Origin: an uncultured virus (IMG/VR IMGVR_UViG_2671181139_000006)
Taxonomy: Duplodnaviria > Heunggongvirae > Uroviricota > Caudoviricetes
DNA length: 64,000 bases
Strand: one strand, 5' to 3'
Virus record (IMG/VR): IMGVR_UViG_2671181139_000006
The notes beneath the pieces are model-generated. The model was not told the DNA's origin. It saw only the letters and a list, made by a program, of their open reading frames with translations, and did no database searches. The position numbers were made by a program, and so were the translations under genes. Numbering within the stretch: position 1 is the stretch's first letter; each line of letters starts with the position of its first letter. Shown here piece after piece: positions 5,251-53,101 of the stretch.

Positions 5251-6438
5251 CTAAACCTCCATCACCAAGTCACCAGTGACGACATCAACACCCAACTCCG
5301 CAGCTACGTTTAATGCACCTGTTAAAAGGTTGCCGACTGCAAGCGGATATAAAAGGCTTTCACTATGGTTCTTGCGACCAACATTGCGGGTGAGTTTTGT
5401 ACAAATGGCATCTAGGCCAGACTCATCAATAAAGTCAGAAAGTTGACGTCCAGCTGCTTTGCAACGGTGCTGTAAATAGTCAATAAGAGTGGTTTGGGTG
5501 AATGGTTCAAGAGTCACAATTTCACAGCGCTGAACGACTTCGCGAACTTCTGGATTGTTTTCAGCCAGTTTGATTTTGAGTTCATCCTGACCAATCAAAA
5601 CAATAGAAAGTAATGGCGTAAAACCATTCTTGAGTTCAAGAAAACGCTTGAGATGTTTTAAAGTTGGGATCGGTAAGCTATGAGCTTCCTCAATCATTAA
5701 TGTGTGATGTAATCCAGCTCGACTAGACTCTTTTAATAAGCTATGAATTTGCTGAAAACGCGCTTCAGGTGAACGCATTGCTTTTGTACTAGGTGCCAAT
5801 GCGCGTAAAATGGCTTCGGCAATATGTGAAGATTTTAAAGTTTTACCTTTGATGTCATCAGCTTCTGTAGCAATCACATAAGGTTCAATAATGATTGTAG
5901 GTTCACGTTCACGTTCTACTCGATCATGTGTCTCCATGCGAATAGTTGTTTTACCTGAACCTGATTGACCAACCAACGCAATAAATGAACTGTTTCCTTT
6001 AACAGTTTGCCAAACAGCTTCACGGGCATAATTGATGTTGGAATCTTGATAAAATTCAGTCGCACTACGAATTTCTTCGGTAAAGATATTTTTAAATAAC
6101 TTAAATTTTCTTCTTGCTTCTGGTGTTAAGGTTTGTTTGCGTAGTAGCATGAGTTGCTCTTCCTCCGGTTGAGTAGTGCTGTCAGTCCCACCATCCAAGG
6201 CTTGGTCGTCAACGGTGTGGGATTGGTCAGCATCTAATGCGTTTTGAATGTCTTCAGGTGCAATGCCTTTGTTCTTTAAAAGCTCAATGAATTGGGCTTT
6301 AAACTCAGCTGCACGTTTCTTCGGGGATAACCCGTGGTTAATAAATAAATTGACTGTTGCAGTACTTACTCCCAGTGGTTTGCAGAGTGAGCTTTGTGTC
6401 ATGTCATGTTGTTTAAGCAATTGTTTAAGTGCGCTCAT
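5251..6438 (-). CDS. Transposition AAA+ ATPase (MuB-like/ExeA family) with N-terminal HTH
   Basis: Walker A GQSGSGKT, Walker B LMIEEAH; follows transposase. Confidence 0.9.
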   Translation of the reverse strand: MSALKQLLKQHDMTQSSLCKPLGVSTATVNLFINHGLSPKKRAAEFKAQFIELLKNKGIAPEDIQNALDADQSHTVDDQALDGGTDSTTQPEEEQLMLLRKQTLTPEARRKFKLFKNIFTEEIRSATEFYQDSNINYAREAVWQTVKGNSSFIALVGQSGSGKTTIRMETHDRVEREREPTIIIEPYVIATEADDIKGKTLKSSHIAEAILRALAPSTKAMRSPEARFQQIHSLLKESSRAGLHHTLMIEEAHSLPIPTLKHLKRFLELKNGFTPLLSIVLIGQDELKIKLAENNPEVREVVQRCEIVTLEPFTQTTLIDYLQHRCKAAGRQLSDFIDESGLDAICTKLTRNVGRKNHSESLLYPLAVGNLLTGALNVAAELGVDVVTGDLVMEV

Positions 6439-6441
6439 GGA

Positions 6442-8187
6442 TTACTCTCCAACCACTCGTAATTTTGGTTTTTGGGTTGCAGCTTTGATGCCTTCTGCAA
6501 TTTCAGGAATAACGTCTTGTGGAACCTCTCCATTAGGGAAAGACTTTTTAAGTGCAGCCATGCATTCAGGTGTCCACAAATCACCGACAAGGCCACGAAT
6601 TTGTTTTGCTGCTTGAATTAAATTGACTGGTGCAACCTGACGACGGCTAATTTCTGTCTGCATTTGTTCACCAGCACGTGGTAAATATTCAGGAACTTCA
6701 TGCTTGGTAATATGTGCAGTTGGGTCGATTTGACCTTGGTACGCTGGGGTACGCTTTTTGATAGCCTTATCAACTTCAGCTTGTGTTTCAGCGTTGTAAG
6801 CTTGTTTCATAATGCGCTTACGTGACTGGTCAATTTTGCTGTCAGGCATAGAGCGAATTTCTTCACCAATGGCTGGTGATTCAGCCAATTGACCAAAGAT
6901 GTCATATTGATCTGGTTGAACGGTGTGAATGACTTGCTCACCATGTTCATCGGTCATCAAGACATCAATGTCAGGTGCGCGATATGGATTAACAACCACA
7001 TCAACTTTTGCGCCTACATAAATGCCATCAATGTGGCGGACGTTATAGAACTGTTCGCCATAACCTTTGATCGTGTGCTGAATCGTCAAATCACCTTTGA
7101 CTGTACGAGATACAGGCAACGTGCTTACTAGCTCTCGGCATAATTCAATTGGTGGCGCAATGCGTAACTGTTCAGGGCGTATCATTTGCCAAACTTGGTT
7201 GCGTGTACGTTTAGTACGGCTATGTACTTTTGTTTCGTTAAACATCACACGCCATTGAGTTGCAAAGGCATTTAACTCTTCAATGCTATCTACTGTTTTA
7301 AAACTGAGTAGTGATTCAAATTGAGTTTCAATAAGATTGTTTGCTTGCTCAACTTGCCCTTTTGCACGGCTGTTATGAGTAGCATGAGCAATAAACTCGA
7401 CGTTGAGTCGTTCAAGTAAATTGCGGAATAAACCACTGGTGTTTGCTGAGCCTTTATCTACATAAAATATGAATGGCACACCGTGCATTGGTTCTTGGTT
7501 GCTGCGTTTTTGGATTGCGTTTAAAAACACATTGGTTAAGTTCTCAGAGCTTTCAGCTCCCCAAACATATTCAAAGTAAATCCAGCCAGATGTGTGGTCT
7601 GTGATGACATAACGAATCACACGGTCTTTTTCGATTTTCTTTAAATTTGCTGGCTTGTTTTTGTAGAACTCACGCTCATCCATAACGTGCATACCAGATT
7701 TTTTATTGAGGTAAAAAACCACACAAATTGATGCATCAGCTTCCCACACATGGTTTGGGTGTAGTGAGCGTTGTTGCTGGTGTGCCGTCGGTGTAACAAG
7801 TTGAGATGGATGGCACATGTTTTGTTTCATAACTCTGGAGATAGTAGCTGCTGAAACTTTTGGTGCTTTGCCACTGTCTTGTGCAACTTCTAAAGCTAAG
7901 TTGATTGGCATACGTTTTTTGCCAGTTTTACTCATTGCGCTAATGACCATACCGCCAACCAGTTCAGCAGTTTCTACGCTGACAATTGACTTGCCTTTGT
8001 CGCTACGTTGTTTGCGGCCAGACTTATAGCCAACGGTTTCAAGCTCACGGTAAAGTTGTGCCTTGCTTATACGTAAATAGTCACAAGCAGTTTTTGCAAT
8101 CTCAGCTTTCTCACCAAACCCAGCATTGGTGAGCTTTGCTGCTACTTCACGCAAATAGTCGATTTTTGCTAGATTTGGATTAGACAT
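6442..8187 (-). CDS. DDE transposase (MuA-like, rve core)
   Basis: PNHVWEADAS, FYVDKGS, AKGQVEQ catalytic motifs. Confidence 0.92.
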   Translation of the reverse strand: MSNPNLAKIDYLREVAAKLTNAGFGEKAEIAKTACDYLRISKAQLYRELETVGYKSGRKQRSDKGKSIVSVETAELVGGMVISAMSKTGKKRMPINLALEVAQDSGKAPKVSAATISRVMKQNMCHPSQLVTPTAHQQQRSLHPNHVWEADASICVVFYLNKKSGMHVMDEREFYKNKPANLKKIEKDRVIRYVITDHTSGWIYFEYVWGAESSENLTNVFLNAIQKRSNQEPMHGVPFIFYVDKGSANTSGLFRNLLERLNVEFIAHATHNSRAKGQVEQANNLIETQFESLLSFKTVDSIEELNAFATQWRVMFNETKVHSRTKRTRNQVWQMIRPEQLRIAPPIELCRELVSTLPVSRTVKGDLTIQHTIKGYGEQFYNVRHIDGIYVGAKVDVVVNPYRAPDIDVLMTDEHGEQVIHTVQPDQYDIFGQLAESPAIGEEIRSMPDSKIDQSRKRIMKQAYNAETQAEVDKAIKKRTPAYQGQIDPTAHITKHEVPEYLPRAGEQMQTEISRRQVAPVNLIQAAKQIRGLVGDLWTPECMAALKKSFPNGEVPQDVIPEIAEGIKAATQKPKLRVVGE

Positions 8188-9583: not shown

Positions 9584-9790
9584 TTAAGCAGTGATATTTT
9601 TCTCACTGTTTGGTTTTATGCCAAGTTGGACAGCAATTTGATGACCTTTTCCACGCTTACATTTGGCTTGACCATTCAAAACCTTATATACGTCTTGTGG
9701 GGTGTAACCATGCTGAATAGCCCAATCAGTAACGGTTTCACCTGTTTTTTCAAACTGGGCTTTGACTTGAGCTGGAGTTTTAATCGTCAT
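9584..9790 (-). CDS. Ner/Cro-like DNA-binding protein (BcepMu gp16-like)
   Basis: KTPAQVKAQF..WA..VYKVLNG..RGKGHQIAVQLGIK; divergent from repressor. Confidence 0.85.
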   Translation of the reverse strand: MTIKTPAQVKAQFEKTGETVTDWAIQHGYTPQDVYKVLNGQAKCKRGKGHQIAVQLGIKPNSEKNITA

Positions 9791-9882: not shown

Positions 9883-10359
9883 ATGATCATTATTTTGAAC
9901 AATTTTAATGAAAGATTACGCTCAGAAGTCGATAGAATAGGAGTTAGTCAATTATCAAGAGACTTAGGAATTGCTCGAAATACACTTTATAATTGGTGTG
10001 AAAAAGGAAATATCCCTCTAGATAAGCTATTGCTTTTAAAAGATTATGGCCTAGATGTGGATTATATTATTACAGGCCAAAAGTTATTCCCATTAGTAAG
10101 TCCCGAAGCCCTTATAATTGCTCAAAAATATGAGCAATCAACTACTGAAATAAAAAATAAAGTTTTGATGTTGTTGTTAAGTGGTGAGGATGCGACAAAA
10201 AATGTCGTAACTGAGATTTCCAACACTGGAAATGGCACCCAATATAATGCTAAAAAACAAACTGTTAATAATGCTCCAGTCACCCAGAATAAAACCAAAG
10301 TAAAAGTTGGTAAGCAACGGGGTGATATCGTGAATGGAGATAAGCATGTAGCCAAATAG
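9883..10359 (+). CDS. Prophage repressor (XRE/CI HTH) with N/G/V/K-rich C-terminal tail
   Basis: ERLRSE..LSRDLGIARNTLYNW..GLDVDYIITG; position divergent from ner-like gene. Confidence 0.85.
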   Translation: MIIILNNFNERLRSEVDRIGVSQLSRDLGIARNTLYNWCEKGNIPLDKLLLLKDYGLDVDYIITGQKLFPLVSPEALIIAQKYEQSTTEIKNKVLMLLLSGEDATKNVVTEISNTGNGTQYNAKKQTVNNAPVTQNKTKVKVGKQRGDIVNGDKHVAK

Positions 10360-10376
10360 CTGGGAGGAATTAAGGT

Positions 10377-11078
10377 ATGAAAAATATGGCCAATGATGAA
10401 AAAAACATTAAAATCCATAAAATTTTAGGGGATGTTATAGGTAAAGACGGTGAGACAGAAATTAAGAAGCTTAAGGGCGATTTAGTTCAGGGTAATAAGT
10501 ATCTGATTAAAAATGGTAAAGAAGCCCCACCACAGGATCATCCTAATGGAAGAGACTGCCCTCAATGTGAGGGATGGACTTGGAAACGCACGAGAGAATG
10601 TGTTCATTGTGGATATGATATCTTTACCATGGATTATGAAGCTGACTTGAAAAGACAAGAAGAAATTCAAGAGCAATTAAGAAAACAACGTGAATTAGAA
10701 GTTATTGAAGAATTGAAAAAGCAGAATAAAAAAGAACCACAAACCTTGTGGGATGTCAGTTCAAATGAGCTTTTTAAAGAACACGAACATTGTAAAAAGC
10801 AAAAATGGGAAGTTTATTCCAAAAGGTTTTTACCTTTTTCTGTAGCAATTTGCGGTTTTGTTATTTCAATTTATCTATTAATTGATTTTGTGATTCCTAA
10901 TATGTTTGGGTTGAAAACTGCTGAATGGTATCTTGTTTATGGAATTATCTTTTTTTCACTCATTCCCTCAACAATCTGGGTAAATAAAGTTAGAAGTAGG
11001 GATGATAAATTAATCGCATATTATAAAGAGCGTATTGAAATAATTACCCATATTTTGAGAGTACGTGGTGATTTATGA
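10377..11078 (+). CDS. Membrane protein: N-terminal GD-x-V-x-G motifs, CxxC..CxxC Zn ribbon, coiled coil, 2 TM
   Basis: CPQC..CVHC; two hydrophobic helices; GGAGG SD. Confidence 0.75.
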   Translation: MKNMANDEKNIKIHKILGDVIGKDGETEIKKLKGDLVQGNKYLIKNGKEAPPQDHPNGRDCPQCEGWTWKRTRECVHCGYDIFTMDYEADLKRQEEIQEQLRKQRELEVIEELKKQNKKEPQTLWDVSSNELFKEHEHCKKQKWEVYSKRFLPFSVAICGFVISIYLLIDFVIPNMFGLKTAEWYLVYGIIFFSLIPSTIWVNKVRSRDDKLIAYYKERIEIITHILRVRGDL

Positions 11079-11719
11079 AGAATGATTTTGAATGGCTAAA
11101 ATGGATTGCTTTTTTTGTTGTTCTTAGTGTTATTGGAGTTGTAGTTTATTTTGCTGTCCCAAATCGGAATACTGAACAGCCCAAACAGGAACAAACATTG
11201 ACAACTACACATGAAAATGTGCAAGTTCAAAAATCTTCAACACAAGATCAACAAGAAACTGTTCCTGTTTCTTATAATGAAGTTGCTCAAAGACTAAAGT
11301 CAGAAGTTCAAGATGCAGTTAATGAAGTTCCACCAGTTTCAATTTATATTGCTGATTTAATGGCAGCTAGAAATGTAAAGTGGGATGAATTAAACCAAAT
11401 TGAAAAGACGACTTATAGCAAAGTCATGAAGGATGTTCAGCAAGAAGGACTTAAACTTCTATGTTCAAGTGGTGTGGTAACTGAAATTTATAGTTTTGAT
11501 AGTAATCAACATAATAAATTTTATGAAGCCGGTATTATAGATGACAGTGGTAAAGTCTTTAGAGTTATTGCAATTGGTTCATCTGGTAATATTGAAGCTG
11601 ATAGCCGAATGAAATTCTGTGGTCAGGTAACAGGTAGGCTAAGTTATAGCAATGCAATGGGTGGTACAACTCATGCCCCTTTTTTAGTTGGTATGTTTGA
11701 TTTACCTGAGAATAAATAA
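11075..11719 (+). CDS. Membrane-anchored extracytoplasmic protein (moron)
   Basis: N-terminal TM, Q/T linker, beta-rich C-terminal domain; ATGA overlap. Confidence 0.7.
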   Translation: MKNDFEWLKWIAFFVVLSVIGVVVYFAVPNRNTEQPKQEQTLTTTHENVQVQKSSTQDQQETVPVSYNEVAQRLKSEVQDAVNEVPPVSIYIADLMAARNVKWDELNQIEKTTYSKVMKDVQQEGLKLLCSSGVVTEIYSFDSNQHNKFYEAGIIDDSGKVFRVIAIGSSGNIEADSRMKFCGQVTGRLSYSNAMGGTTHAPFLVGMFDLPENK

Positions 11720-11725: not shown

Positions 11726-11794
11726 GCGGAAGTCCTTCCGCCTGATATAAATAAACTTATACATACAAACTTAGCCTCATCATTTGATGGGGTT
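11726..11794 (+). promoter_or_regulatory. Late promoter 1 (activator palindrome GCGGAAG-TC-CTTCCGC, -10 CAAACT, hairpin)
   Basis: One of five copies with identical spacing; upstream of lysin. Confidence 0.8.
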
Positions 11795-11799: not shown

Positions 11800-12300
11800 G
11801 TGAACAAAACTTTTCAAACAGCACTAAAACGAGTGCTTCAACATGAGGGTGGATATGTAAATCATCCCTCCGATCCCGGTGGTGAAACTAATTACGGCAT
11901 AACAAAAAGTGTTGCACGCCAATATGGCTTTAAAGGTTCAATGAAAGATATCCCGATGTCTACAGTTGAGAAGATTTATAAGAGCCAGTATTGGGATGCA
12001 ATGAGCTGTGACAGTTTTCCATTCTCTGTGGCTTTCCAGCTTTTTGATGCAGCAGTAAATCATGGGTTGCTCAATGCCCGAAAACTTTTACAGCGTGCAG
12101 TCGGTGTGAAAGATGATGGCATTATTGGCCCCTTAACTTTAGCTGAAGTTCGTAAGCAACCACAGTTTGCATTAATCAGCTTATTCAATTCCAAACGCAT
12201 TGAATTCTATACAAAGATTTCAACTTTCAATGCCTTCGGAAAAGGCTGGATGGCACGTGTAGCGGTGAACTTGAAATATGCTGCGGAGGATATGTTATGA
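11800..12300 (+). CDS. Endolysin, glycoside hydrolase family 108 with PG-binding domain
   Basis: HEGGYVNHPSDPGGETNYGIT, FDAAVNHG, DGIIGPLT, FGKGW. Confidence 0.92.
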   Translation: MNKTFQTALKRVLQHEGGYVNHPSDPGGETNYGITKSVARQYGFKGSMKDIPMSTVEKIYKSQYWDAMSCDSFPFSVAFQLFDAAVNHGLLNARKLLQRAVGVKDDGIIGPLTLAEVRKQPQFALISLFNSKRIEFYTKISTFNAFGKGWMARVAVNLKYAAEDML

Positions 12301-22914: not shown

Positions 22915-25900
22915 ATGGCTCAACAAACAATTGTTATTGAAGTACCCGGCAAATCAATTAGTGAGCTTGAACCAACTTCAAGCGTTTCACCTAATGATGT
23001 TTTGCCAGTGGTTCAAGGTGAAGAAACAAAGAAAGCGCCATTAGAGCAAGTAGCTGATCTAGTCAAGGCTGGGTTGGGTTCTGCTGCATTAAAAAATGTG
23101 GAAGATTTTGCAACACCCGATACTGTTTTATCAGTAGCTCAAGCAAGCCAGTTACGGGATGATGCACAAAATGAACGTATTGATAATGTTGAATATTCAG
23201 TGACTACGATTGCGAATGGTACTGATGCTTCATTCAATACTTATGCTGAGATGATTGCATATACACCACCACAAGCGAATGTTTCTGTGCGTGTTAATGC
23301 AGACCCTGATCCTGAAAAAAATGGAACATATACTTGGAATGGCAGTACATATACAAAAGGTTTTGATCTAAAACTGGCTGTTATTCAAGAAGCTGAAGAA
23401 TTTATTTTGAATAATAAAATCGATGCGTCATTGGTATATGAAGAATTAAAAAGATTCGCACTTTTTTCTGATAGTCATTTAGTTGCCTCACCAGTAATTT
23501 CAACTTTTTTTATTGAAGTCCAAGCTGGTGACATCTTAACTGTCCAGTCAGCATTGGGTGACAGTAATACAGGAAGCAAAATTGACTATGCATTTCAGCT
23601 AGATACTAATCGAAAAATGAAGTTTGTATTGTTTTCATATATATCGACTGGCTTAAATGTAATGCAAACATATTCTGTGACCGCGCAAGAGAAAGGATTT
23701 ATCGCATTACGTGTCAGAACTGGAGATCCAAGTTTTAGTTATGATATTTCAAAGCAGGAAAATATCTTTGTAACGCCAACATTGCTCAAATCTGAAAAGA
23801 ATGCGAACCTCGGTATCGTAGAACATGTTTCATCATTGCCGATTTATCAAAAGCAAGATTTCAGTAATAGTCAATATGAAATCGGATATGTGATTAATAT
23901 TGATGGTACAAAAACAAATACATCAGATACGACGTGGAGAAATTATTATATTGATGTAAAACAAGGTGATGTTGTAGAGGTGTTCGCAACAACTGGCGAT
24001 GGTACAACAAACTTAGATATGTCTTTTGTAGCACAACTGAGCAAAGACAAGACCTTCTTAAATAATTTAAAATCATTTAAGACCACAGGTTATGCTTATA
24101 ACATTGCTTCAGCTACAGTTTTCGCTGAAAAAGAAGGTTATATTTATATTCGTGCAAGAGTCGGTACAAAACCTAAAATCCTAAGAACTCGTGCTAACTT
24201 CATGCAACGTTCTGATTTTGGTTCGATGCTTGAAGAAAACATTGTTACTACGACTGATCTCACAAATTACCCATATTTTGATACTAATTATATCTATGAT
24301 GTCGGTGGTATTAAAACCAGTGTGCCTATTGAATCTGGCTGGCGAAGTTACTTCTTTGAATGTGATAAGGGAGATATTTTTACATATAATGGCAGAGTCG
24401 GTTCAGGCACTGTTGGTCAACAGATGCTCTATATTGCTCAATTTGATAGTAATAGAAATTACGTTTCAACTTTAGCGACATACACATCAACTGGTAATAA
24501 TGCTGCAATAGCAAATCTTGTAGGAACAGCAACACAGTCTGGTTTTGTGTATGTCCGTGCACGTACAATGACCGCTGCAAATCCAGCTTATACAATCTTT
24601 AAATCATCCAAAAATTTTGCTTCAAATTCTGATGTATCCAAGGCATTAACAAAAGTTTCTGCTATTGATATGAAGTTAAATCAGACTATTGGAATCATTA
24701 ATGACACTGTTCAACTAAAAGTTGAGGAAGCATTAGACGGTAATATCGATCAAAAGATCAATGAAATTGCAGCTGAGAAAGTCACTGAAATTGCAGCAAG
24801 CACGATTGAGTCTAATGTTGCTGAGGCAATTGCTAATAGTGATGTTTCAAACATTACAAAAGTTGATGTACAGCTTGAAAAATTACCAGTCTCGACATCG
24901 AATGACCATGGTTACAACTTTGCCCCATTTACTCAAAATAATGTAGTTACTTTTGATGATTATCAATACGTTATTGTTATAGATAAGAATAGAAGCCCGA
25001 TTATTTTGCAGCGTTATAAATTGGGTTCATGGAATACTTTTGATCTATCAACAATCGCTGGAAATCCATTTGCTTCACCGAATGCGGGGGACGGGCATAA
25101 TAATTTTGGTGTAACAGTAACTAAAAATGGATTTATCTTGATCACTGGTAATCATCACAACAATGTATGTCGCTGTGTAATTAGCAATAATCCGCATGAT
25201 ATTTCTGGATGGCAACGAATTTATTATACAAATTCAACTGTTGTCACATATCCGCGATTTGTTCGTTATCCCGATGGTACAACACAGGCTTTTTGGCGTG
25301 AAGGCCAATCAGGTGATGGTGCTTTTTTTGCTTCAATTTTTGATGATGTGAATAAAGTTTTTAATGTGAAGGTCAAACTCATAGATCAGGCGAGTACAGT
25401 TGTATCAAATCCATATGAACAACGTGTTGGAGTTGCTTCAGATGGGTCACTGCATCTTTGCTGGGGATACCGTACGCAATCATCATCAGCGAATACTAAT
25501 TTTGGTATGTTTTACGCAAAATCTTCAGATAAGGGAGTGACATGGACAAGCGCAAGTGGCGCAAATTCGTATGCTTTACCACTGAATGATGTTCGTTCTG
25601 AACTAATCTTCAATGCACCGGCGGGTTCAGGCTTTGTAAATCAAAATGGTGGTTGTTGTGATTTGAACTCTCGATATCACACTGTTATTACGCAATATGA
25701 TGGTAATGACAAAACTCAGATTTGTCATATCTGGTTCGACGGATCGACATGGAAAAGTGAGTTAGTAAGTGACTTTACTTTTAAGTATGACCTGTCAGGA
25801 CCATTAACTACAAATCAACTATCTCGTCCACTAATTGCGGTTACACAGTTTGGGAAAATCTTTGTTCTATACCGAACTTCACATATGAATCGTCAAAATC

Positions 25901-26115
25901 ACATTCGTTGTATTGATGTTTCAACACCAAATGCTCCTATTGATTTCTGTCTCACAAAATTCAATATGAATTTACTTGAACTAAGCTTGAACACTGACTA
26001 TGCAATAAATAGTAATGAGTTGGTATTCCTATTAAGTCGAGGTGCAGGTGATGTTGAAAATGCACTCTGGAAAAACCAAAGCACTTACTTGCTTACCGCA
26101 CCTTTAATGATTTAA
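22915..26115 (+). CDS. Fibre/spike-like protein with tandem beta modules and C-terminal BNR-4-type beta-propeller (putative depolymerase)
   Basis: ISELE..D.LPVVQG.ETKK N-terminus; DGHN..GNHH, TYPRF..F.WREG.SGDG, Asp-box YAKSSDKGVTW. Confidence 0.75.
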   Translation: MAQQTIVIEVPGKSISELEPTSSVSPNDVLPVVQGEETKKAPLEQVADLVKAGLGSAALKNVEDFATPDTVLSVAQASQLRDDAQNERIDNVEYSVTTIANGTDASFNTYAEMIAYTPPQANVSVRVNADPDPEKNGTYTWNGSTYTKGFDLKLAVIQEAEEFILNNKIDASLVYEELKRFALFSDSHLVASPVISTFFIEVQAGDILTVQSALGDSNTGSKIDYAFQLDTNRKMKFVLFSYISTGLNVMQTYSVTAQEKGFIALRVRTGDPSFSYDISKQENIFVTPTLLKSEKNANLGIVEHVSSLPIYQKQDFSNSQYEIGYVINIDGTKTNTSDTTWRNYYIDVKQGDVVEVFATTGDGTTNLDMSFVAQLSKDKTFLNNLKSFKTTGYAYNIASATVFAEKEGYIYIRARVGTKPKILRTRANFMQRSDFGSMLEENIVTTTDLTNYPYFDTNYIYDVGGIKTSVPIESGWRSYFFECDKGDIFTYNGRVGSGTVGQQMLYIAQFDSNRNYVSTLATYTSTGNNAAIANLVGTATQSGFVYVRARTMTAANPAYTIFKSSKNFASNSDVSKALTKVSAIDMKLNQTIGIINDTVQLKVEEALDGNIDQKINEIAAEKVTEIAASTIESNVAEAIANSDVSNITKVDVQLEKLPVSTSNDHGYNFAPFTQNNVVTFDDYQYVIVIDKNRSPIILQRYKLGSWNTFDLSTIAGNPFASPNAGDGHNNFGVTVTKNGFILITGNHHNNVCRCVISNNPHDISGWQRIYYTNSTVVTYPRFVRYPDGTTQAFWREGQSGDGAFFASIFDDVNKVFNVKVKLIDQASTVVSNPYEQRVGVASDGSLHLCWGYRTQSSSANTNFGMFYAKSSDKGVTWTSASGANSYALPLNDVRSELIFNAPAGSGFVNQNGGCCDLNSRYHTVITQYDGNDKTQICHIWFDGSTWKSELVSDFTFKYDLSGPLTTNQLSRPLIAVTQFGKIFVLYRTSHMNRQNHIRCIDVSTPNAPIDFCLTKFNMNLLELSLNTDYAINSNELVFLLSRGAGDVENALWKNQSTYLLTAPLMI

Positions 26116-38594: not shown

Positions 38595-39149
38595 TTACTT
38601 CTTTAAAAAGAGTGCTCGTTCTGCTTCTCGGCGACGAACTAGGCCCTTCATAACCTTACCACCTGCTTTGTTCCACACAAGGAATTGATCAGCAGCGCCT
38701 TGATAGTCACCTTTATTCAGTTTTTTTAATAAGGTTGAATTATTAAATGCACCTGAGCCAATGTTGTAAGTCAGCGATACCAAAGCATCAAATTGATTTT
38801 GAGTTATGGGAACTGTCACAGATTCATTTACTGTTTTTTCAAATTTGGCCAAGTCGTGTTTAAAGTAAGCTTTAGCTTGTTCAGGTGTGCAAGTATCCCC
38901 TTTTTTTACCTTCACGCCATTAGGATAAACTGTTGTGCCAGTACCAATGGTCCAAACCCCTACACCATCATCGTAAGCATTGAATCGCGTGCCTTCAAAA
39001 CTAGTTATTAAATCTATACCATCATCACTTGTAGTTTTTCCACCTGGTGCAAGTTTTTCGACCACTTTATTTAAATCGTCTACTTGTGCCTGTGTAAGCT
39101 TGCCGCCTGCGATCACTCGGGCAGCGTCGAAGAATGGTTTAGTTGTCAT
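38595..39149 (-). CDS. Endolysin, GH24 lysozyme
   Basis: FEG...AYDDGVGVWTIG.G.T, QNQFDALVSL.YNIG, GLVRRREAER. Confidence 0.93.
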   Translation of the reverse strand: MTTKPFFDAARVIAGGKLTQAQVDDLNKVVEKLAPGGKTTSDDGIDLITSFEGTRFNAYDDGVGVWTIGTGTTVYPNGVKVKKGDTCTPEQAKAYFKHDLAKFEKTVNESVTVPITQNQFDALVSLTYNIGSGAFNNSTLLKKLNKGDYQGAADQFLVWNKAGGKVMKGLVRRREAERALFLKK

Positions 39150-39357
39150 TGGATTCACCTTTCTTTTTCTCTAACTCAGAGCTACCAAAATAAAACCCAC
39201 ATGCTGTTGTCATAGCCCCAGCAATAAAACCCAATGCCGTATTGATCAGATTGCTGTTTTCTCGCGGCATATCCACAAAAAATAAAGCAATCACTAAAAC
39301 AAACATCAGTCCCACCAATGCAAAAGCTAGATATGCGCGAGTATTTTCACTGTTCAT
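39139..39357 (-). CDS. Putative holin
   Basis: 2 TM, FYFGSS motif, overlaps lysozyme. Confidence 0.75.
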   Translation of the reverse strand: MNSENTRAYLAFALVGLMFVLVIALFFVDMPRENSNLINTALGFIAGAMTTACGFYFGSSELEKKKGESNDN

Positions 39358-39710
39358 CTTTTTGCTTCCTCCAACCGTGATACTTTCTCTTTAATTAAAG
39401 ACTGGTCTTGGCTTAATTGAATAATTGAAGATCCAACCCACGCACACAATGAAAATACGATGCCTGCAAATATTCCCAGCAATACACGCAGCACAGAAAT
39501 TCCACCATCTTGCGCTGCTGTGCGGTTTTCTAAATTGGCGACTTTGATATCCAATGTATCGATATCTTTTTTGTTCTGTTCGCTAGTCTCTTTGTGCGCT
39601 TCATTAATGAAAGTCAGTCGAGTAACATGATCTGACAACATGCGAATATCACTCTGAATGGAGTCGATTTTCTTTTCAAATCTCAACCCGTATGATTCAT
39701 TTTCAGTCAT
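39354..39710 (-). CDS. Coiled-coil + TM lysis-module protein
   Basis: Coiled coil then hydrophobic helix. Confidence 0.65.
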   Translation of the reverse strand: MTENESYGLRFEKKIDSIQSDIRMLSDHVTRLTFINEAHKETSEQNKKDIDTLDIKVANLENRTAAQDGGISVLRVLLGIFAGIVFSLCAWVGSSIIQLSQDQSLIKEKVSRLEEAKR

Positions 39711-39733
39711 GCCTTCCCCCTAATTTCGGCAAT

Positions 39734-39766
39734 AAAAAAGCCCTAACTTATTTAAAGCTAGGGCTT
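39734..39766 (-). terminator. Rho-independent terminator
   Basis: AAGCCCTA..TAGGGCTT + T6 on minus strand. Confidence 0.65.
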
Positions 39767-39785
39767 GTGGTGGTTTGTTGTGTAG

Positions 39786-41474
39786 TTAACAGTTGATTGA
39801 GATAACACCAGTGTCAATATCAACTGAGATAGTTCCATTTATATTAGAAATCAACTGCCCATTTTCGACTTTAAATTTACCGCCAACTGCCGGTGAAACA
39901 TCTGATAAAACATAATGAGCTTTGTTTTGATCCGTGGAAATATAACCTCGTTTTAATACCCTGCCCTGACCTTTCTTCAGACCTTCTGCTGTAGTTGTCA
40001 TGACAGGAATATCATCTAGAGCAACACCAAAAATCTTATCATTACCATTTGCAAGCTTGACGGTACCCTGAGACTTTGTAACAACACTGCCCTTTGGAAT
40101 ATATGTGGCACCATTGTTATAAACAGTTTCAGCAACGTCAGTCATCATCGGGTAATAATCGCGGCCATAGGCATACAGATCTGCCGTAGCACCAACAAGA
40201 GCTGCGTTTATTTCAGAAAGAATTGCAGCATTCGACATTGACGTATAGTCTTTGTTAAATATCACTGTATAAGTAGTGCCATTGATAATCACACCAAGCG
40301 TTTTATTGCTAGTTGAGCAGTTACCAAGGCGTTTGCCCATACTTGTGTAGACTGTAGGTTTTTCTAAATCTGCTGCTGTATCTCCCAAATCTTTGCATCC
40401 AAAAGCAAGAGCAGGTAAACCAACTGTTCCATCTTGAACAATATAACCATCCAAATAATCACGGCTATCTATATACAAATTAACATCTGTATTTGCTTGA
40501 TTATTTTTAATCAAAATCGGATATGCAGAAGATGTTTTATCAAAACGAATCGTATTACCGACACCTACAGACGAGGTTTTAATTCTCAAGCAAAAGCCAT
40601 TAACATTGTTATCAAAAAGAAATGGATCGTTTCCATACCCCTCTAACTGCCATTCCGCATGATTGAATGAATCATAGTTTTGGACTGGGTTTGCTTTCAG
40701 CCATACATCACGATATTCGATGACATATGATGTACCGCCAAAGCTACAACCAATAAACTCCATTTTGTCACTCAATAATGAACCGTCATTATCAATGAGA
40801 GCAATTAATTTGCTTGTATTACTTGAAAATTTGAATCCCTCAAAATGCATTAACGATGGCTTATCGAATTTGGTGTTGTTATGGCAATACAAAGGTTGTC
40901 CTGAGTCAGAATGACTACCACCGCCAATGAAATATGTTTCTTCGCCAGTGCTTGTGCCAATGCCTAGAGCCTGCCTAGAACCCTTGTCTCCTTTAAAGAT
41001 GAACCAAACACCTTCAAACTTATGCGTAGCATTTGCTCCAAGAGGATTATCTATATGTAACGCATAACGACCATTGACAATGACAAATGTTACGTCTTTG
41101 ATTAGTGAATCTTTTGCGTAACTGTAGAGAGTCTGATATTGAGTTCGAGGATAAGTACTTCCATTAGCAGAGGGTCCAATGGCAGCATCATCATAAGGCA
41201 ATTCGCACCAGAATACCGTTTTACCATCACCAATAATATCAACATGGTCCTTTGCCAAGATCATTGATGGATAACCGGGATAACCAATCACGTCTGCTGC
41301 AACATTAACTTTATGAAAGCCTTTGGTTCGTATTGTATATCGTTTCTTATCTGTAGCATCAGTGATGCTATTTAGTGCAAGCTGTACAGCATTTTTGCCG
41401 ACAAACGCTGCACTAGTGTCACTTGTGTCAGCAGAAGTCAGAATTTCAGTTGTCTTTACATCAACGATCACCAA
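39786..41474 (-). CDS. Tail spike C-terminal part (beta-helix-like putative depolymerase); likely frameshifted from 41461-43020
   Basis: AVQLALNSI..DHVDIIGDG beta-helix-entry pattern; TTG start without SD. Confidence 0.6.
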   Translation of the reverse strand: MVIVDVKTTEILTSADTSDTSAAFVGKNAVQLALNSITDATDKKRYTIRTKGFHKVNVAADVIGYPGYPSMILAKDHVDIIGDGKTVFWCELPYDDAAIGPSANGSTYPRTQYQTLYSYAKDSLIKDVTFVIVNGRYALHIDNPLGANATHKFEGVWFIFKGDKGSRQALGIGTSTGEETYFIGGGSHSDSGQPLYCHNNTKFDKPSLMHFEGFKFSSNTSKLIALIDNDGSLLSDKMEFIGCSFGGTSYVIEYRDVWLKANPVQNYDSFNHAEWQLEGYGNDPFLFDNNVNGFCLRIKTSSVGVGNTIRFDKTSSAYPILIKNNQANTDVNLYIDSRDYLDGYIVQDGTVGLPALAFGCKDLGDTAADLEKPTVYTSMGKRLGNCSTSNKTLGVIINGTTYTVIFNKDYTSMSNAAILSEINAALVGATADLYAYGRDYYPMMTDVAETVYNNGATYIPKGSVVTKSQGTVKLANGNDKIFGVALDDIPVMTTTAEGLKKGQGRVLKRGYISTDQNKAHYVLSDVSPAVGGKFKVENGQLISNINGTISVDIDTGVISINC

Positions 41475-43020
41475 TCATCAAATTTTCAGCAATACGTACA
41501 TCATGAGATACATAAGATGATGGAAAGTACGAACTTTCAGCTACAACTACCGTAGATAACTGACTCTTAGGAATTGAAAAGCGAACGTATTTCGCATTAG
41601 AAGGTGTTGTAAATTTCTTTTTTGCATTCGGCGTGGCTAACCCTGAGATATACACGAATGTAGCATCAAAGAAAGCAAACTGCTGATTATAGAAATCAGA
41701 TGTTTGATACTCAATACTTGGCTTAATCTCAATAAAGTCAGTTGCAACAAAACTAGTGTTAGTACCAATATTGCCGTTTGAAAAGTCAACGTACTTATCT
41801 TGAATTACCTTGGTTGTATCAATAATGTTGATAATCTTAAATCCGATAGCGGTCTTAATCTCATTGGCATTATTTTGGGCTTGACTAGCAGTAAGCTGAA
41901 AATCTTTGATATTCACAGCATAAGGTACAAAAGTGCTAGGAAATATAGAATTTTCAGCAATTACAACGGAATTCAATGTTGAACTTTGAATCGAGAATTT
42001 TGCAAACTTAGCATTCGCAGGTGTTGTGAATTGTTTATTTGCATCAGGTGTAGCTAGTCCCGAAATATAAACCATATTCTCATCGTAAAAAGCAAACTGC
42101 TGATTGTAGTTGCTAGAAACTTTATACAATGTGTTCGCTTTAACAGGATACGGACCTGCTGCTACAAAAGTAGCGTTATTATCAAGAAATCCGTCCTGAT
42201 ATTTAACGTATTTACCTACAACAACTTTTGTTGTATCAACAATATTTACGCTGCTAAAACCGAGCCACTCTTTAATTTTTGTTGGTAGATTTTTAATTAA
42301 ATCCGCATCGACTGTTAAATTTTTCTTCTTGAGAACATAAGGTACATAATCAGCGGGATATTCGCTTGATTTACAAACCATAAAAGTGCTGACATTGCCG
42401 TTTGCAACAGTGAACCGAACATATTTAGCGTTCGATGGGGTTGTAAACTTAGATGTAGAACTAGCGTCTGCTATACCCGAAATATAAACTTTATTCGCAT
42501 CATAATATGCAAACTGTTGATTATATCCTCGCGGTAGACGATATTCAGTGCTTGGTGAAACTTCACAAAAATCAGAAGCTGAGTGTATAGGGCTATCACC
42601 CAAACTACCATTTGTATAAACTACATATTTTCCAACTGTGACTTTAGATTTATCTACTATGTTTTGATCATTGACAAATCCGAGTTCTAAGATTTTACCA
42701 TCTGCATAGGTTTTCGCTAAATCTACTGGACTCAACCCTTCGTCAATCCAAGCAGTGCCATTCCACTTATAAAGTTTTTTAGTGTCAAAAGCATAACCGA
42801 CTGATGGATTGACTGTTGGAATTGTAGCTAATAGCTCAGCTTCAGTGCTGTAAGCTTTCCAGCCGCCAGTTTCCATCAATATGCGAATAGCTTTAGCAAG
42901 AGTAGGATAAATACGGCCTAATCGGCTAATAACATCTGTAAACTCATCGCCACTTGAGAACTTTTCTACTGTTCCCATGTCGACAATTGCGTTATCTACT
43001 TTGGTTTGTAAATCTGACAT
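41461..43020 (-). CDS. Tail spike N-terminal part with three ~140-aa repeats
   Basis: Virion-attachment N-terminus; repeats QQFAFYD..YISG..FTTPSNAKYVRF. Confidence 0.75.
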   Translation of the reverse strand: MSDLQTKVDNAIVDMGTVEKFSSGDEFTDVISRLGRIYPTLAKAIRILMETGGWKAYSTEAELLATIPTVNPSVGYAFDTKKLYKWNGTAWIDEGLSPVDLAKTYADGKILELGFVNDQNIVDKSKVTVGKYVVYTNGSLGDSPIHSASDFCEVSPSTEYRLPRGYNQQFAYYDANKVYISGIADASSTSKFTTPSNAKYVRFTVANGNVSTFMVCKSSEYPADYVPYVLKKKNLTVDADLIKNLPTKIKEWLGFSSVNIVDTTKVVVGKYVKYQDGFLDNNATFVAAGPYPVKANTLYKVSSNYNQQFAFYDENMVYISGLATPDANKQFTTPANAKFAKFSIQSSTLNSVVIAENSIFPSTFVPYAVNIKDFQLTASQAQNNANEIKTAIGFKIINIIDTTKVIQDKYVDFSNGNIGTNTSFVATDFIEIKPSIEYQTSDFYNQQFAFFDATFVYISGLATPNAKKKFTTPSNAKYVRFSIPKSQLSTVVVAESSYFPSSYVSHDVRIAENLMIGDR

Positions 43021-43035
43021 ATTTTTACACCCAAT

Positions 43036-43060
43036 AAAAAAGCCCGCTTTATGCGGGCTT
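43036..43060 (-). terminator. Rho-independent terminator
   Basis: AAGCCCGC-ATAAA-GCGGGCTTTTTT. Confidence 0.7.
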
Positions 43061-43075
43061 GTGGTTAATCTTGAT

Positions 43076-45910
43076 TTATGAAATTAGGTTGTTGATGTAA
43101 TCACTATCATTTGAGTAGTAACGCTCGTCATAGTTCACAGCAGTAATCTCACTTTCAAAAGTGGCGCTTGGCGATTTTTCGGAAATGAGATAGGCCTCAC
43201 TATCTAATTCATTTGATAGTGTGATTGAGTAATTCGTGGCTGTTACTTTGCCATCTGAACTTGTGATCAGTGGAAGGATTGGCAAGCGCTCTAAAATTAA
43301 ATGCCATTCATCCACACCTTGTGTGACCAGCATTGTTTCTACTGAGCCGTTCGATAACTGCAAATGAATTGTGTATGACTTGGTGGCGTCCAAATGGACA
43401 GGCTGCGAAATCTGGATATTCAGGCCACTCCAAGCCTCAATTTCTCCTGAAGTAAAGCCACCTTCTTCACCCAACGGTACCAAAGTAGGGATAGAATCCT
43501 TAACTACTGCAATGCGATCATTAATAGTGACTAAATCTGCTTCACCGTAACCCGTGAATTGAATTGTCTCTCTTTGATACTGAATCCTGTTCCATGTTCT
43601 ATACGCTAAAAGATAGGCCTGAACTTTGTTCGTAACACCAATGAGTTCAATTTTCTTTGGATTGGTAATTCCATCATTCGGAAGCTTAATTGACTCTTCT
43701 GTGTAGTTTTCACTAGCATTACGCCACGTTGCTTCAACACCATCATATTGCTTGTCTTTACCAAATCGCGTTGTCACAGTCTCGGATTGCGGCTTTTTAT
43801 TGCGATGATTAAACAAGATAGAAGATGAGGGGTTTACCTTCTCAAACTGAAAATAAATTTTGCCAGATGTCCTTCGCGCATTACAAAATACAGCAGATGC
43901 AATAGTTGCAAGAGTCTCTTCATAAGACATATTGTCATTATCAAACGTGTAGTTAAACTCAATAGCTTTAGAAGTTCCAAAGTAGGTTTGAATCTGGCTT
44001 TGAGTTGCATACAAGTCTTGAATATCAACAGTGTCTATAGACCTACGACCTATATAATCATCTGTTGTAACGGCACAAACAATGTCAGCAAACTTATTAG
44101 ATGCAATGCGTTCAGGTGATTTAGAGCCAGATTCGTATGAAAATACTTTCCGAGTAGCAAGCATATTTAACTCACGCTTTTTTACTCCGGAAGTAATGTC
44201 ATTGGTAACAGTAACAGTGCGTACTAGAGTTACATCATCGTACGATAGCTTGGTTAAAGCTGTCATGATATAGACTGAATGCGCCTGAACTTCATCTACT
44301 ACCGTACCTTTTGAAGAATGTACAGTAAGTCGTCTTAATCTATATCTAAGGCGGCTTGTAGATGGCAGTGTTGCTTTTAGCGTTAAACCAACCGGGCTTG
44401 CAATACTCTGAGGATTACCGAAAAGGTTTTCAGAAACACTATAAATTGCACCTGTCGGTGTACCAGTTGAATCTAGAAGTTGATACTCCATTTCAAGCTG
44501 AACGCCAATAACCTCTTTATAGCCCTTCTCGCCAATATGATATAGACCCTGTGGCGCATTGAAGTTAGCAAAGATTTGGTCGCCTTCTGTGTCGGTTTCA
44601 TACCACCCTAACCAATTCTCTTGTGAACCATATAAGCCAACCATATTGCCTGCTGTACTACCCCAATTCTGAAGTTTCAGCCAATCTGGGTTTATGGCAT
44701 CAGGCGCTGACAAGGTAATTGATGTGCCTGAGTTAATATTGATTGTGTATGTTCCGTCTAGGTCCATACTGTCAATGTTATCTGTGAGTGTGCCAGAAAT
44801 TGAGCTAGATGCAGCCTCTGTCATTTTTAGAAAATTCTGGTTAACAGCTTGCGGGTTAACCAATGAAATCTCATATACCCACGAACCAGCACTACCTGAT
44901 TTGGCTATATTACTTACTTCGTAAACCCCAGCTAAATCTAGAGTCCCCTCTACCGGATCGTCTATTAGTAACGCTTGGATCGCTAGGCCCTTGAAATTTT
45001 GCGGCTGGTAAATATCTGTGCTTGTCGCGACTGTCAATACGTAGTCAAGACCTACATCTACAGTGCCCGATAACAGTTGATCTTTAACCCCGTATTGAGC
45101 ACCTTCAATAGAAATAGTTTCGCCATTTACGAAAGCTGTTGTAGCGACATTAATAACGTTTGGATAAGTAAAGGTGATTGTATTTTTAACAACACGCGCA
45201 GAGCTTGGATTCAAAAGCGTTTGCCCTGTAATACTACGTGATTGCTTACCTACTAACGGAGCGTAATTTAAAACATCTCCGTATCGATACATTGGAGTTG
45301 TTGTGTCTAGGCTTTGATTTGGGTCATATACAGAAACCGATTCACCATCAATCTGGTTAATTGATGTCTCGCCTTCTTTAACATCTGAGATTTCATAATA
45401 CCCACGCCCCAAGCACATCAAGCACTCTTCAATCTCTACATTATTTTGAAAATATCGAAGAGGCGGTGCAATAAGATCCGGGATGGCAAGAACTGTACCG
45501 AACGGATCAGGTATGCGACCACCAATACGTTGTGTATTTTCTCGATTACCAAGTTTATTGTTGGATGAAGACTTTTCTATACCTTTGTTCGCATCTGGCA
45601 TAGTCAAAATTGTATAAATTGAGAATGCTAGAGATACTACAAGGGACACCACAGCAATAATTGTTGCTGGTTCACCTGCTTCACAGACAACATCAAAGTC
45701 GTGCTTTTTGGACAACATTAATAGTGACGCTTCATCTATCTTATTAGTTGGCGTTACATCATTGTGTACACATGCTGGCTGCAAGTAGATTCGTGCTTGT
45801 GGGTGTTTTTTCTTTATATATTTAAATGCTTCAAGAACCCGATCAGTACGAACATGTAGAACATTGTCTTGTCCATCAATTGGATTGGTGAATATGCGTA
45901 ATCGGCTCAT
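43076..45910 (-). CDS. Tail tip / host specificity (J-like) protein
   Basis: SSNNKLGNREN..R.G.RIPDPFG, TAVNYDERYY; position. Confidence 0.8.
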   Translation of the reverse strand: MSRLRIFTNPIDGQDNVLHVRTDRVLEAFKYIKKKHPQARIYLQPACVHNDVTPTNKIDEASLLMLSKKHDFDVVCEAGEPATIIAVVSLVVSLAFSIYTILTMPDANKGIEKSSSNNKLGNRENTQRIGGRIPDPFGTVLAIPDLIAPPLRYFQNNVEIEECLMCLGRGYYEISDVKEGETSINQIDGESVSVYDPNQSLDTTTPMYRYGDVLNYAPLVGKQSRSITGQTLLNPSSARVVKNTITFTYPNVINVATTAFVNGETISIEGAQYGVKDQLLSGTVDVGLDYVLTVATSTDIYQPQNFKGLAIQALLIDDPVEGTLDLAGVYEVSNIAKSGSAGSWVYEISLVNPQAVNQNFLKMTEAASSSISGTLTDNIDSMDLDGTYTININSGTSITLSAPDAINPDWLKLQNWGSTAGNMVGLYGSQENWLGWYETDTEGDQIFANFNAPQGLYHIGEKGYKEVIGVQLEMEYQLLDSTGTPTGAIYSVSENLFGNPQSIASPVGLTLKATLPSTSRLRYRLRRLTVHSSKGTVVDEVQAHSVYIMTALTKLSYDDVTLVRTVTVTNDITSGVKKRELNMLATRKVFSYESGSKSPERIASNKFADIVCAVTTDDYIGRRSIDTVDIQDLYATQSQIQTYFGTSKAIEFNYTFDNDNMSYEETLATIASAVFCNARRTSGKIYFQFEKVNPSSSILFNHRNKKPQSETVTTRFGKDKQYDGVEATWRNASENYTEESIKLPNDGITNPKKIELIGVTNKVQAYLLAYRTWNRIQYQRETIQFTGYGEADLVTINDRIAVVKDSIPTLVPLGEEGGFTSGEIEAWSGLNIQISQPVHLDATKSYTIHLQLSNGSVETMLVTQGVDEWHLILERLPILPLITSSDGKVTATNYSITLSNELDSEAYLISEKSPSATFESEITAVNYDERYYSNDSDYINNLIS

Positions 45911-46259
45911 AATAGCGAATCCGTTTATAGAACTTCTTCAATACTTGAATGTTTAAATAGTGGACACCAAGCTCAGTTAGGTGCAAAACCCTGCCGCAAT
46001 AAAAAAGCCCCACATGGGAGCTTTGATTTTGATTTGTCATCAAGACAATGGAGCCGTCAATTGGGTGATCTATTCGCCTGTTCTGAATTACAGTATTGCG
46101 TGAAGTTTTTAGTGTCTCGTGCAGCGAACCAGTCAAACCAATAAATGAGCTTGAATAATCTTGCTTAAAAAGATATTCAGCAGCTTCAAGCAAGAAGTGA
46201 ACACAGTGATAATGTTGTGGGTCATATTGTCTATTAAGCAAGCTATCAATACTTTTCAT
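45876..46259 (-). CDS. NlpC/P60-like tail protein
   Basis: YHCVHF, HVGLF..GRVLHL. Confidence 0.75.
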   Translation of the reverse strand: MKSIDSLLNRQYDPQHYHCVHFLLEAAEYLFKQDYSSSFIGLTGSLHETLKTSRNTVIQNRRIDHPIDGSIVLMTNQNQSSHVGLFYCGRVLHLTELGVHYLNIQVLKKFYKRIRYYEPITHIHQSN

Positions 46260-47220: not shown

Positions 47221-47290
47221 ATTTGCCTTCCCTAAAATTTAGACATAAAAAACCGACCTCTTTATGGGTCGGTTTAAATATTTAGTTTCA

Positions 47291-47359
47291 TTACATTTTC
47301 CAAATATATGTACATATAATCAAAGTGATAAGAATTGCAATAAAGCGCCATGCTTTCAT
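47291..47359 (-). CDS. 22-aa hydrophobic peptide MKAWRFIAILITLIICTYIWKM
   Basis: Manual translation; GAGG SD, ATGA overlap. Confidence 0.5.
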   Translation of the reverse strand: MKAWRFIAILITLIICTYIWKM

Positions 47360-47529: not shown

Positions 47530-47565
47530 CTATGTTCTGATCCTCAAGTCTGGTTTGTGGGTTAG

Positions 47566-47608: not shown

Positions 47609-47657
47609 GGATAAAGGAAAAGCCACCCATAGGTAGCTTTTCTTTAATTTAAAAATA

Positions 47658-53085: not shown

Positions 53086-53101
53086 GCAATATCCCCTTTA
53101 C

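Follow-up and report, generated by a model that had tools for sequence, protein, structure and literature searches.

A motif shared by the tail of an immunity repressor and the head of the adjacent membrane protein in a Mu-like prophage

We analysed a 64,000-nucleotide stretch of DNA (hereafter the window) from an uncultured virus of the Caudoviricetes (IMG/VR record IMGVR_UViG_2671181139_000006). The window holds a Mu-like transposable prophage, and three co-oriented genes, encoding P0001, P0002 and P0003, lie between its leftward early operon and its rightward late genes. P0001 is the immunity repressor, P0002 a membrane protein and P0003 a signal-anchored extracytoplasmic protein. An earlier note on this DNA, prepared from its letters, had pointed out that the repressor ends and its neighbor begins with a similar short peptide, and had read the pair as a possible amyloid-type defence system coupled to the repressor or, alternatively, as a route to SOS-independent induction. 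The observation was confirmed, its first interpretation is supported in part, and the mechanism presented below is one that we infer.

The repressor P0001 (158 aa; 9883..10359, plus strand) is composed of a CI-type helix-turn-helix (HTH) domain, a helical middle and a disordered tail. Residues 15-67 match Phage_CI_repr (PF07022, E 5e-8), and with its N-terminal HTH and a gene divergent from the early operon the protein is a phage repressor of the CI type. Absence of an S24 peptidase domain, noticed at first sight of the sequence, was borne out by Pfam, in which Peptidase_S24 gave no match at E<=1. P0001 thus falls outside the autocleaving S24 class, and RecA-stimulated self-cleavage therefore cannot be its induction route. 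The AlphaFold2 (AF2) monomer model shows helices up to residue 116 and a disordered tail from 116 to 158 with a predicted local distance difference test score (pLDDT) of about 33. A search with PADLOC returned for P0001 only a weak HTH-only match to mad1 (E 2.8e-4).

The tail motif covers residues 139-158 (10297..10356, plus strand) and has the core GD-I-V-N-G-D-K. Across eight aligned repressors, including P0013 with its different HTH, residues 112-158 are almost invariant. Between the window and a related locus (L002; L numbers denote related loci throughout), tail codons 111-158 differ by seven synonymous and two non-synonymous changes, versus five synonymous and 16 non-synonymous changes in the adjoining helical part (68-110). 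By these counts, the tail is the most constrained part of P0001 and is under purifying selection. Two further observations concern the tail. P0013 carries an HTH_3-type domain and is 53% identical to P0001 overall, yet its helical end and tail are almost identical, which suggests that immunity specificity was exchanged by recombination while the tail-partner module stayed in place. In addition, a short basic K/R cluster directly after the motif ends the tails of the window, L017, L022, L023, L024, L030, L031 and L032, whereas the heads have no such cluster; it may act as a gatekeeper, contact lipids or mark the protein for degradation.

The membrane partner P0002 (233 aa; 10377..11078, plus strand) contains two head motifs, a Zn ribbon, a long helix, a hairpin of two transmembrane (TM) segments and a conserved C-terminal helix. 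Its only match in PHROGs is phrog_17537, a family of unknown function. The principal head motif occupies residues 26-45 (10452..10511, plus strand), where it was delimited by the high-scoring segment pair (HSP) with the repressor tail; its core reads GD-L-V-Q-G-N-K, and columns G34, D35, V37, Q38 and K41 are invariant across four homologues. A weaker first copy, which the earlier note had also listed, was located by a loose pattern match at residues 11-24 (10407..10448, plus strand), but it is deleted in P0006, the most distant homologue. The Zn ribbon and two TM helices attributed to this protein were recovered. Four Cys residues (C61, C64, C75 and C78; 10557..10610, plus strand) form the ribbon and are invariant in two alignments, a long helix spans residues 82-117, and hydropathy and K/R counts place TM segments at residues 155-173 and 184-202 (10839..10982, plus strand) in an N-in/C-in hairpin. 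In the AF2 model, residues 1-55 are disordered (pLDDT below 50) and helices run over 129-230, those around the hairpin comprising 151-175 and 181-230. Since five K/R residues precede the TM pair, one lies in the loop and five follow, both termini, and hence the head, are predicted to be cytoplasmic, leaving a periplasmic loop of approximately 10 residues.

Close relatives of P0002 are few, with only three 90%-cluster relatives among 164 candidates. The same gene pair is present in L001 and L004 (P0002 100% identical over its length), in L002, L005 and L034 (69%) and in L003 (74%). A fold search with the P0002 model against viral structures gave no match at E<=0.001, and in the ESM Atlas the best score was 0.77, to unnamed clusters only. 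PADLOC returned no match, and no toxin family was found in Pfam, PHROGs, PADLOC or NCBIfam, which places the pair outside type II toxin-antitoxin systems despite the disordered repressor tail.

A profile of the P0002 family searched against 1.84 billion representatives produced 97 matches at E<=0.001, of which 50 were examined. These are two kinds of small proteins, matching either the N-terminal or the C-terminal half of P0002. The first kind has the head motif, a ribbon of the form PP-x-x-HPN-x3-CPQC...TW...C-x2-C and one or more C-terminal TM segments; the second has a 2-TM hairpin between conserved cytoplasmic segments. This division suggests that P0002 is a fusion of two partner types found separately elsewhere. 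Most of the stand-alone proteins of both kinds, among the 50 of 97 matches examined, begin with a short stretch belonging to this motif family (FNG-x-FGGD[YF]V-x-G[DN]K or F-x-G-x-V-x-QVAG[RG]DI-x-N), and a minority, for example P0027, P0033, P0037, P0042 and P0092, have none. Because the motif is common to both kinds, the head is likely a mobile unit that has been attached to different membrane modules. When P0022 was sought in 201 Acinetobacter genomes, the single clear match was the P0002 homologue itself, and three others were borderline (E about 8e-4 to 9e-4). A shared-word search for longer, possibly fused head-bearing proteins provided no candidate, which is weak evidence regarding fused HTH-motif-TM forms.

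Comparison of the two window proteins revealed a best ungapped segment of 20 residues, P0001 139-158 against P0002 26-45, with seven identities and a BLOSUM62 score of 45. Composition-preserving shuffles matched this score in 3 of 2000 cases, and in 1 of 500 in a second run. Of all 65 pairs of adjacent co-oriented genes in the window, this one scores highest, the runner-up reaching 32. Among 564 six-frame open reading frames (ORFs) of at least 30 aa, two contain the pattern GD[ILVMYF][VI].[GR][DN]K, precisely at the tail and head sites. The peptides reported in the earlier note lie within these segments, at repressor residues 141-156 (10303-10350) and neighbor residues 28-43 (10458-10505), and its statement that the repressor's C-terminal end and the neighbor's N-terminal start have a motif in common agrees with these results. 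Both motif regions are disordered in the AF2 monomer models (P0001 116-158 and P0002 1-55, pLDDT below 50).

The arrangement recurs in other phages. Two sub-alignments used as queries against viral contigs retrieved 2 and 16 loci (L015-L032), with a GC content of 0.41 to 0.67; L017 and L018 are identical, as are L022 and L026, and L024 and L025 are close. At all 18 loci a short HTH gene, transcribed away from a Mu-type early region, is closely followed by a head-bearing gene. With a motif hidden Markov model (HMM), 15 of the 18 upstream ORFs were seen to carry the motif at the C-terminus, with one to four N-terminal copies downstream, and the tail of L016 was recovered by an HSP with a score of 57, which none of 500 shuffles reached. 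Eleven upstream ORFs were scanned against domain families: nine match HTH families, one matches YdaS only and one matches nothing. At least one TM-like segment is present in 18 of the 21 head-bearing proteins examined. Two to four head-bearing genes follow one another in L017, L019, L020, L021, L027, L028, L029 and L033, and ATGA overlaps join repressor and partner genes in several loci. L033 belongs to an isolated virus, Ralstonia phage YO107_2, in which the repressor tail is followed by two head-bearing genes. To this set the window contributes a divergent GD-x-V-x-G-x-K flavor in Acinetobacter, a fused partner with a duplicated head, and an exchange of the S24 domain for the tail, described below.

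Some loci deviate in their composition. In L031 (2827-3345 and 3366-3581) the tail is on a separate 71-aa ORF with no family match, located after a tail-less HTH protein; this ORF could be either part of a split repressor or a free-standing tail protein. Further head-bearing proteins of about 200 aa in L017 (4013-4678), L019 (2754-3389) and L027 (2492-3082) show recurrent sub-threshold matches to ORF6C and GemA, and a second His/Gly/Ile-rich, beta-type stretch after the head; two of the three are without a TM segment. A head-bearing 273-aa protein in L020 (2657-3478) has a weak NCBIfam match to the flagellar regulator Flk (E 4e-4).

To evaluate co-variation, each tail (last 35 aa) was scored against each head (first 45 aa). 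We used 17 non-redundant pairs; L002 was dropped as being near the window, and the duplicates L018, L025 and L026 were never included. The cognate sum was 879 versus a re-pairing mean of 600 (standard deviation 49), and 0 of 50000 re-pairings reached the cognate value. For the 14 pairs of the AGRD flavor alone, the cognate sum was 694 versus 579 and was reached by 99 of 50000 re-pairings. In a separate run with 10 pairs, the cognate sum was reached by 0 of 20000 re-pairings overall, and by 56 of 5040 when re-pairing was confined to the seven AGRD-flavor pairs. Within the GD flavor, the cognate head is the best head for each tail when the near-duplicate L002 is set aside, and the residue after the GD-x-V-x core is, in tail and head respectively, G/G in the window, G/G in L015 and R/R in L016. 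The motifs are thus co-conserved and co-vary across divergent phages, and the lack of co-conservation that the earlier note had named as speaking against its proposal was not found. Recent gene conversion was considered as the source of the tail-head similarity and rejected: at 138 positions where tail and head have identical residues, 70 codons are identical and 60.6 +/- 5.5 are expected from the codon usage of the genes, so that codon identity is near chance.

Two related viral contigs provide a different view of the repressor tail. Over the HTH, the repressors of these sister phages (L006 and L007) share 65% and 68% identity with P0001, and both carry Peptidase_S24 (E 3e-22 and 3e-21). In L006 the gene after the S24 repressor encodes a lipoprotein, in L007 an anchor protein resembling P0003, and neither locus has a relative of P0002 in this position. 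The motif HMM, which is weak for the window's flavor, detected no motif in the two loci. Conversely, tail-bearing repressors never carry S24, neither the window repressor nor any of the 11 upstream ORFs scanned (0/11). It appears, therefore, that in the window's lineage the combination of helical segment, tail and P0002 is one alternative and S24 the other.

The third gene encodes P0003 (11075..11719, plus strand), a signal-anchored extracytoplasmic protein with one N-terminal TM segment at residues 10-28. The gene overlaps that of P0002 by ATGA, in agreement with its earlier description as a third coupled gene for a membrane-anchored extracytoplasmic protein, but it is not part of the motif module. 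Neither the motif HMM nor a pattern scan found the motif in P0003; its N-terminal anchor is kept while the ectodomain differs in L002, L015 and L007; and a P0003-type anchor gene also follows the S24-type repressor of L007. For these reasons we regard P0003 as swappable cargo of the same operon. The cargo slot behind the partner corresponds to 11075-11719 in the window, 3702-4256 in L002, 3947-4567 in L015 and 1491-1979 in L007. Its proteins have a common signal anchor (D-F-E-W-L-K-W plus a TM segment) and unrelated extracytoplasmic domains, and the L015 ectodomain resembles the L006 lipoprotein. PADLOC gave only a weak JetC match for P0003 (E 0.017).

The surrounding genes are those of a transposable phage. 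Pfam domains of the Mu-type set found in the window are the rve transposase, AAA_22, Phage_Mu_Gp27, Portal_Mu, Phage_Mu_F, Mu-like_Pro and Mu-like_gpT. On the minus strand of the early side lie the rve transposase gene (6442-8187), a MuB-like AAA_22 gene (5251-6438) and a DUF3164 gene, each assigned by its domain match. A small early regulator (9584..9790, minus strand) occupies the position of Mu ner, divergent from the repressor and with the rve and AAA_22 genes leftward of it; its match to HTH_35 is weak (E 0.006, below the Pfam cut-off). A terminator-like hairpin with a T run (11773..11794, plus strand), located by a consensus scan only, closes the P0001-P0002-P0003 unit just 5' of a GH108 endolysin gene (11800-12300, plus strand, domain match), and the late genes on the plus strand include Mu gp27, the Mu portal, Mu F, protease I and the gpT major head protein.

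The nearest public relatives of the window are from Acinetobacter; one of them, A. pittii ATCC 19004, carries L003, and A. pittii gave the one locus found among species-representative genomes. In the phage GenBank collection there was no DNA-level match to the window locus, the sole protein-level relative being that of Ralstonia phage YO107_2 (unannotated). A metagenome scan added one further copy, of the L002 type. Four RNA runs were inspected, two of which were empty. One metatranscriptome contig covers 10184-10389, with too few P0002 bases for bridging, and one run contained a single 32-base piece in the intergenic terminator region.

An antisense ORF over the tail-coding region (10122-10418, minus strand, 98 aa) was set aside as most likely a compositional artefact, its relatives being open there in a different frame. 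Elsewhere in the window, a 1066-aa protein encoded among the head and tail genes (22915-26115) has a BNR_4 domain (E 1e-37) and may be associated with the tail as a glycan-binding protein or depolymerase. Directly beside the Mu-like prophage, at 38595-54560 and mostly on the minus strand, lies another one unrelated to it, with Phage_lysozyme (38595-39155), a tape measure protein (47658-51611) and a Bro-N protein (53637-54560).

We interpret the repressor tail and the partner head as probable copies of one motif of approximately 20 residues, Gly/Asp/Val-rich and of beta type. Because the motif is shared, co-varying, terminal and in disordered regions, with both copies cytoplasmic, we argue for direct recognition: tail and head would probably pair homotypically in the cytoplasm, and this pairing would couple the lysogeny repressor physically to a membrane-anchored protein of the same operon. 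The tail and partner module would then stand in for the S24 autocleavage domain of the sister phages. A change of state in the membrane partner, which might cluster or expose its heads, could capture repressor tails; such capture would remove or disable the repressor, the early operon would be derepressed, and induction would follow independently of SOS. A role in repressor control is favored because tail-bearing repressors are without S24 and sister phages carry S24 in place of tail and partner. Weak sub-threshold matches to ORF6C (E 3e-4 to 1e-3) in three other motif-bearing partners lend it weak support, ORF6C being a domain associated with antirepressor-type phage proteins. We put forward this combination, direct tail-head pairing in a module that replaces S24 as SOS-independent control of the repressor at the membrane, as a tentative account that comes somewhat short of being probable; that tail and head bind directly, which way the signal runs and what sets it off are the steps that we infer.

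Several points weigh against this account. The S24 exchange rests on two S24 loci in the window's lineage. Tails are divergent in L027 and L028, where the pair scores are only 36 and 18, and the cognate head is not always ranked first, standing 5th to 14th in L020, L021, L022, L028 and L032; shared ancestry of the loci moreover inflates the co-variation counts to an unknown degree. Membrane anchoring is not universal, since 3 of the 21 partners have no TM-like segment. P0002 itself is nearly without a periplasmic part with which it could sense a signal. Finally, co-translation of repressor and partner, suggested by the ATGA overlaps of several loci, requires a further step that prevents constant titration of the repressor by its partner.

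The same shared motif could instead serve amyloid-type signalling, as the earlier note first proposed. Clustered tails, or an attack on the repressor, would nucleate a cross-beta fold that templates the head, and the 2-TM protein would become membrane-damaging and bring about an abortive-infection state. A terminal motif common to adjacent gene products is the layout of the HET-S/NWD2 and bacterial amyloid signalling sequence (BASS) pairs. P0002 has two motif copies versus one in the repressor, and HET-S likewise has two versus one in NWD2. One tail faces several head-bearing proteins per locus, as NLR motifs face several effectors. BASS1-10 are bacterial Bell/NLR amyloid signalling motif pairs, for which a filter was used of local alignment length of at least 15 and score of at least 40, and a composition rich in Q, N, G, V and I and poor in K, P and L (Dyrka et al., bioRxiv 10.1101/2020.01.06.895854). 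The window pair passes that filter with a length of 20 and a score of 45, obtained from an ungapped BLOSUM62 HSP and not from EMBOSS matcher, and the 20 pooled motif segments, with 50.7% Q/N/G/V/I and 7.0% K/P/L, agree with the bias as described there. Bab/Agp, moreover, shows that pairs of this kind work in E. coli prophages (bioRxiv 10.1101/2024.11.07.622273).

The motif is real, conserved and co-varying, but the domain pattern of BASS systems is unmatched. A Bell or HeLo executioner joined to an NLR or STAND sensor was not found, there being no such domains in Pfam, PADLOC or NCBIfam, nor any Pfam amyloid-motif family at E<=1; the orientation is reversed, with the motif at the N-terminus of the presumed effector; and PADLOC has no match for P0002. 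A conserved charged core (R-D or G-D) and the K-rich flavor of the window, whose own two segments contain 53.8% Q/N/G/V/I and 26.9% K/P/L, are atypical. Furthermore, a DNA-bound repressor oligomer would keep its tails together constantly, and the loss of S24 whenever the tail is present is left unexplained. We therefore regard amyloid-type signalling as unlikely, although worth keeping in view. SOS-independent induction of the repressor, the earlier note's own alternative, appears a better fit to the exchange of S24 for the tail. In a prion-like form of that control, the partner's heads would seed a cross-beta or beta-solenoid assembly in which tails are trapped irreversibly, giving Mu-like phages an all-or-none, membrane-triggered and SOS-independent induction; this self-templating switch we likewise consider doubtful.

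Two other explanations rank below amyloid signalling. In the first, the partner is a harmful or lysis-promoting membrane protein that self-assembles through its head, the repressor tail caps this head in the manner of an antitoxin, and loss of the repressor frees the partner. The gene order, in which a small membrane protein follows an HTH protein and genes of several loci overlap by ATGA, is in line with such masking, as are the disorder of the repressor tail and the location of the operon directly upstream of lysis genes. Toxin-antitoxin contacts, however, are normally heterotypic and do not need sequence identity of both parts, no toxin family was detected, and some partners are soluble, which together make this explanation distinctly improbable. 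In the second, tail and head are tags recognized by one host factor, such as a protease, a chaperone or a membrane-targeting factor, and not by each other, the partner serving as a decoy or competitor. Stability of the Mu repressor depends on its C-terminal end and on ClpXP, and the basic cluster that ends the tails and is lacking from the heads could be part of such a signal. Flavors nevertheless differ between the low-GC loci of the window and L015, which have the same P0003-type anchor gene and a similar tail linker, and they co-vary pair by pair, as expected of mutual recognition and not of a common host factor; we consider a common tag very unlikely. Chance, or a functionless remnant of duplication or gene conversion where the two genes meet, is scarcely credible, for although no more than 7 of the 20 aligned residues are identical in the window pair and both regions are rich in K, G and D, the shuffle tests, the recurrence in 18 viral contigs and one isolated phage, the synonymous divergence and the purifying selection on the tail all speak against it.

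The recurring, co-varying motif pair suggests a hitherto undescribed connection of a lysogeny repressor with the cell membrane, and with it a physical path that leads from the membrane to the lysogeny switch or in the opposite direction. To our knowledge, the exit from lysogeny of temperate phages with non-self-cleaving repressors is poorly understood, transposable phages being a leading case. The conserved, co-evolving peptide offers a concrete hypothesis for them that can be tested by mutation. With an amyloid-like contact, amyloid signalling would reach beyond immune receptors into the control of transcription, and a prion-like switch would make the repressor the first transcription factor known to be under amyloid-type signalling control in bacteria. 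Either way, the motif flavors could act as specificity tags that predict repressor-partner pairs.

In full-text searches on amyloid signalling, phage repressors and SOS-independent or membrane control, we found, among the papers listed, no description of a repressor-linked motif pair. Neither repressor nor HTH nor Xre occurs as a word in the accessible part of the preprint on the E. coli prophage pair Bab/Agp, designated BASS11 (bioRxiv 10.1101/2024.11.07.622273), and the words repressor, HTH, phage, transmembrane and zinc are all absent from the accessible part of the deep-learning paper on amyloid signalling motifs.

Like the fungal HET-S/NWD2 and the BASS pairs, the present system has a G/N/Q/V-rich motif, about 20 residues long, that ends one product and stands at the N-terminus of the adjacent one, in flexible regions, and this terminal motif common to adjacent gene products is seen in all 18 loci L015-L032 and in L033. 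As in BASS pairs, the motif co-varies within pairs and one side is membrane-directed; as with Bab/Agp, the setting is a prophage. The soluble partner here is a DNA-binding lysogeny repressor, in contrast to the NLR or TPR (tetratricopeptide repeat) sensor of BASS systems, and the membrane partner is a Zn-ribbon/2-TM protein with an N-terminal motif in place of a Bell or HeLo domain. The core also differs, being a conserved charged G-[RG]-D, with the limit that BASS11 was set alongside by description and not by sequence.

Other comparisons concern control of the repressor. Repressors of the LexA/lambda CI type with S24 occupy the same phage position, and their HTH is 65-68% identical in the sister phages L006 and L007, but S24 is replaced here by a helical segment and the motif tail. 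The rexAB genes of lambda are a cassette expressed in lysogeny behind the repressor gene; they resemble the present genes in being co-oriented, directly 3' of the repressor gene and inclusive of a small polytopic membrane protein, but PADLOC indicates no sequence relation and rexAB shares no motif with CI. Membrane sequestration is known for Mlc, held by PtsG, and for sigma factors, held by Zn-binding membrane anti-sigma factors. These systems likewise combine a cytoplasmic DNA-binding regulator with a membrane protein whose cytoplasmic N-terminal part, here the Zn ribbon, could hold the regulator; no homology to them was detected, and a shared homotypic motif contact is not theirs.

In SinR/SinI of Bacillus subtilis, a repressor and its antagonist share an oligomerization segment. 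The genes are adjacent, and SinI copies the C-terminal interaction segment of SinR, so that a heteromer can replace the homomer. A shared segment at the repressor's C-terminus and gene adjacency are both present in the window, where the P0001 tail is disordered in AF2. The segment of SinR/SinI is a helical hook and the antagonist is small and soluble, in contrast to the beta-type or disordered segment and the membrane-anchored partner described here. If the tail-head contact is simple mimicry, the pair would be a membrane-anchored counterpart of SinI/SinR.

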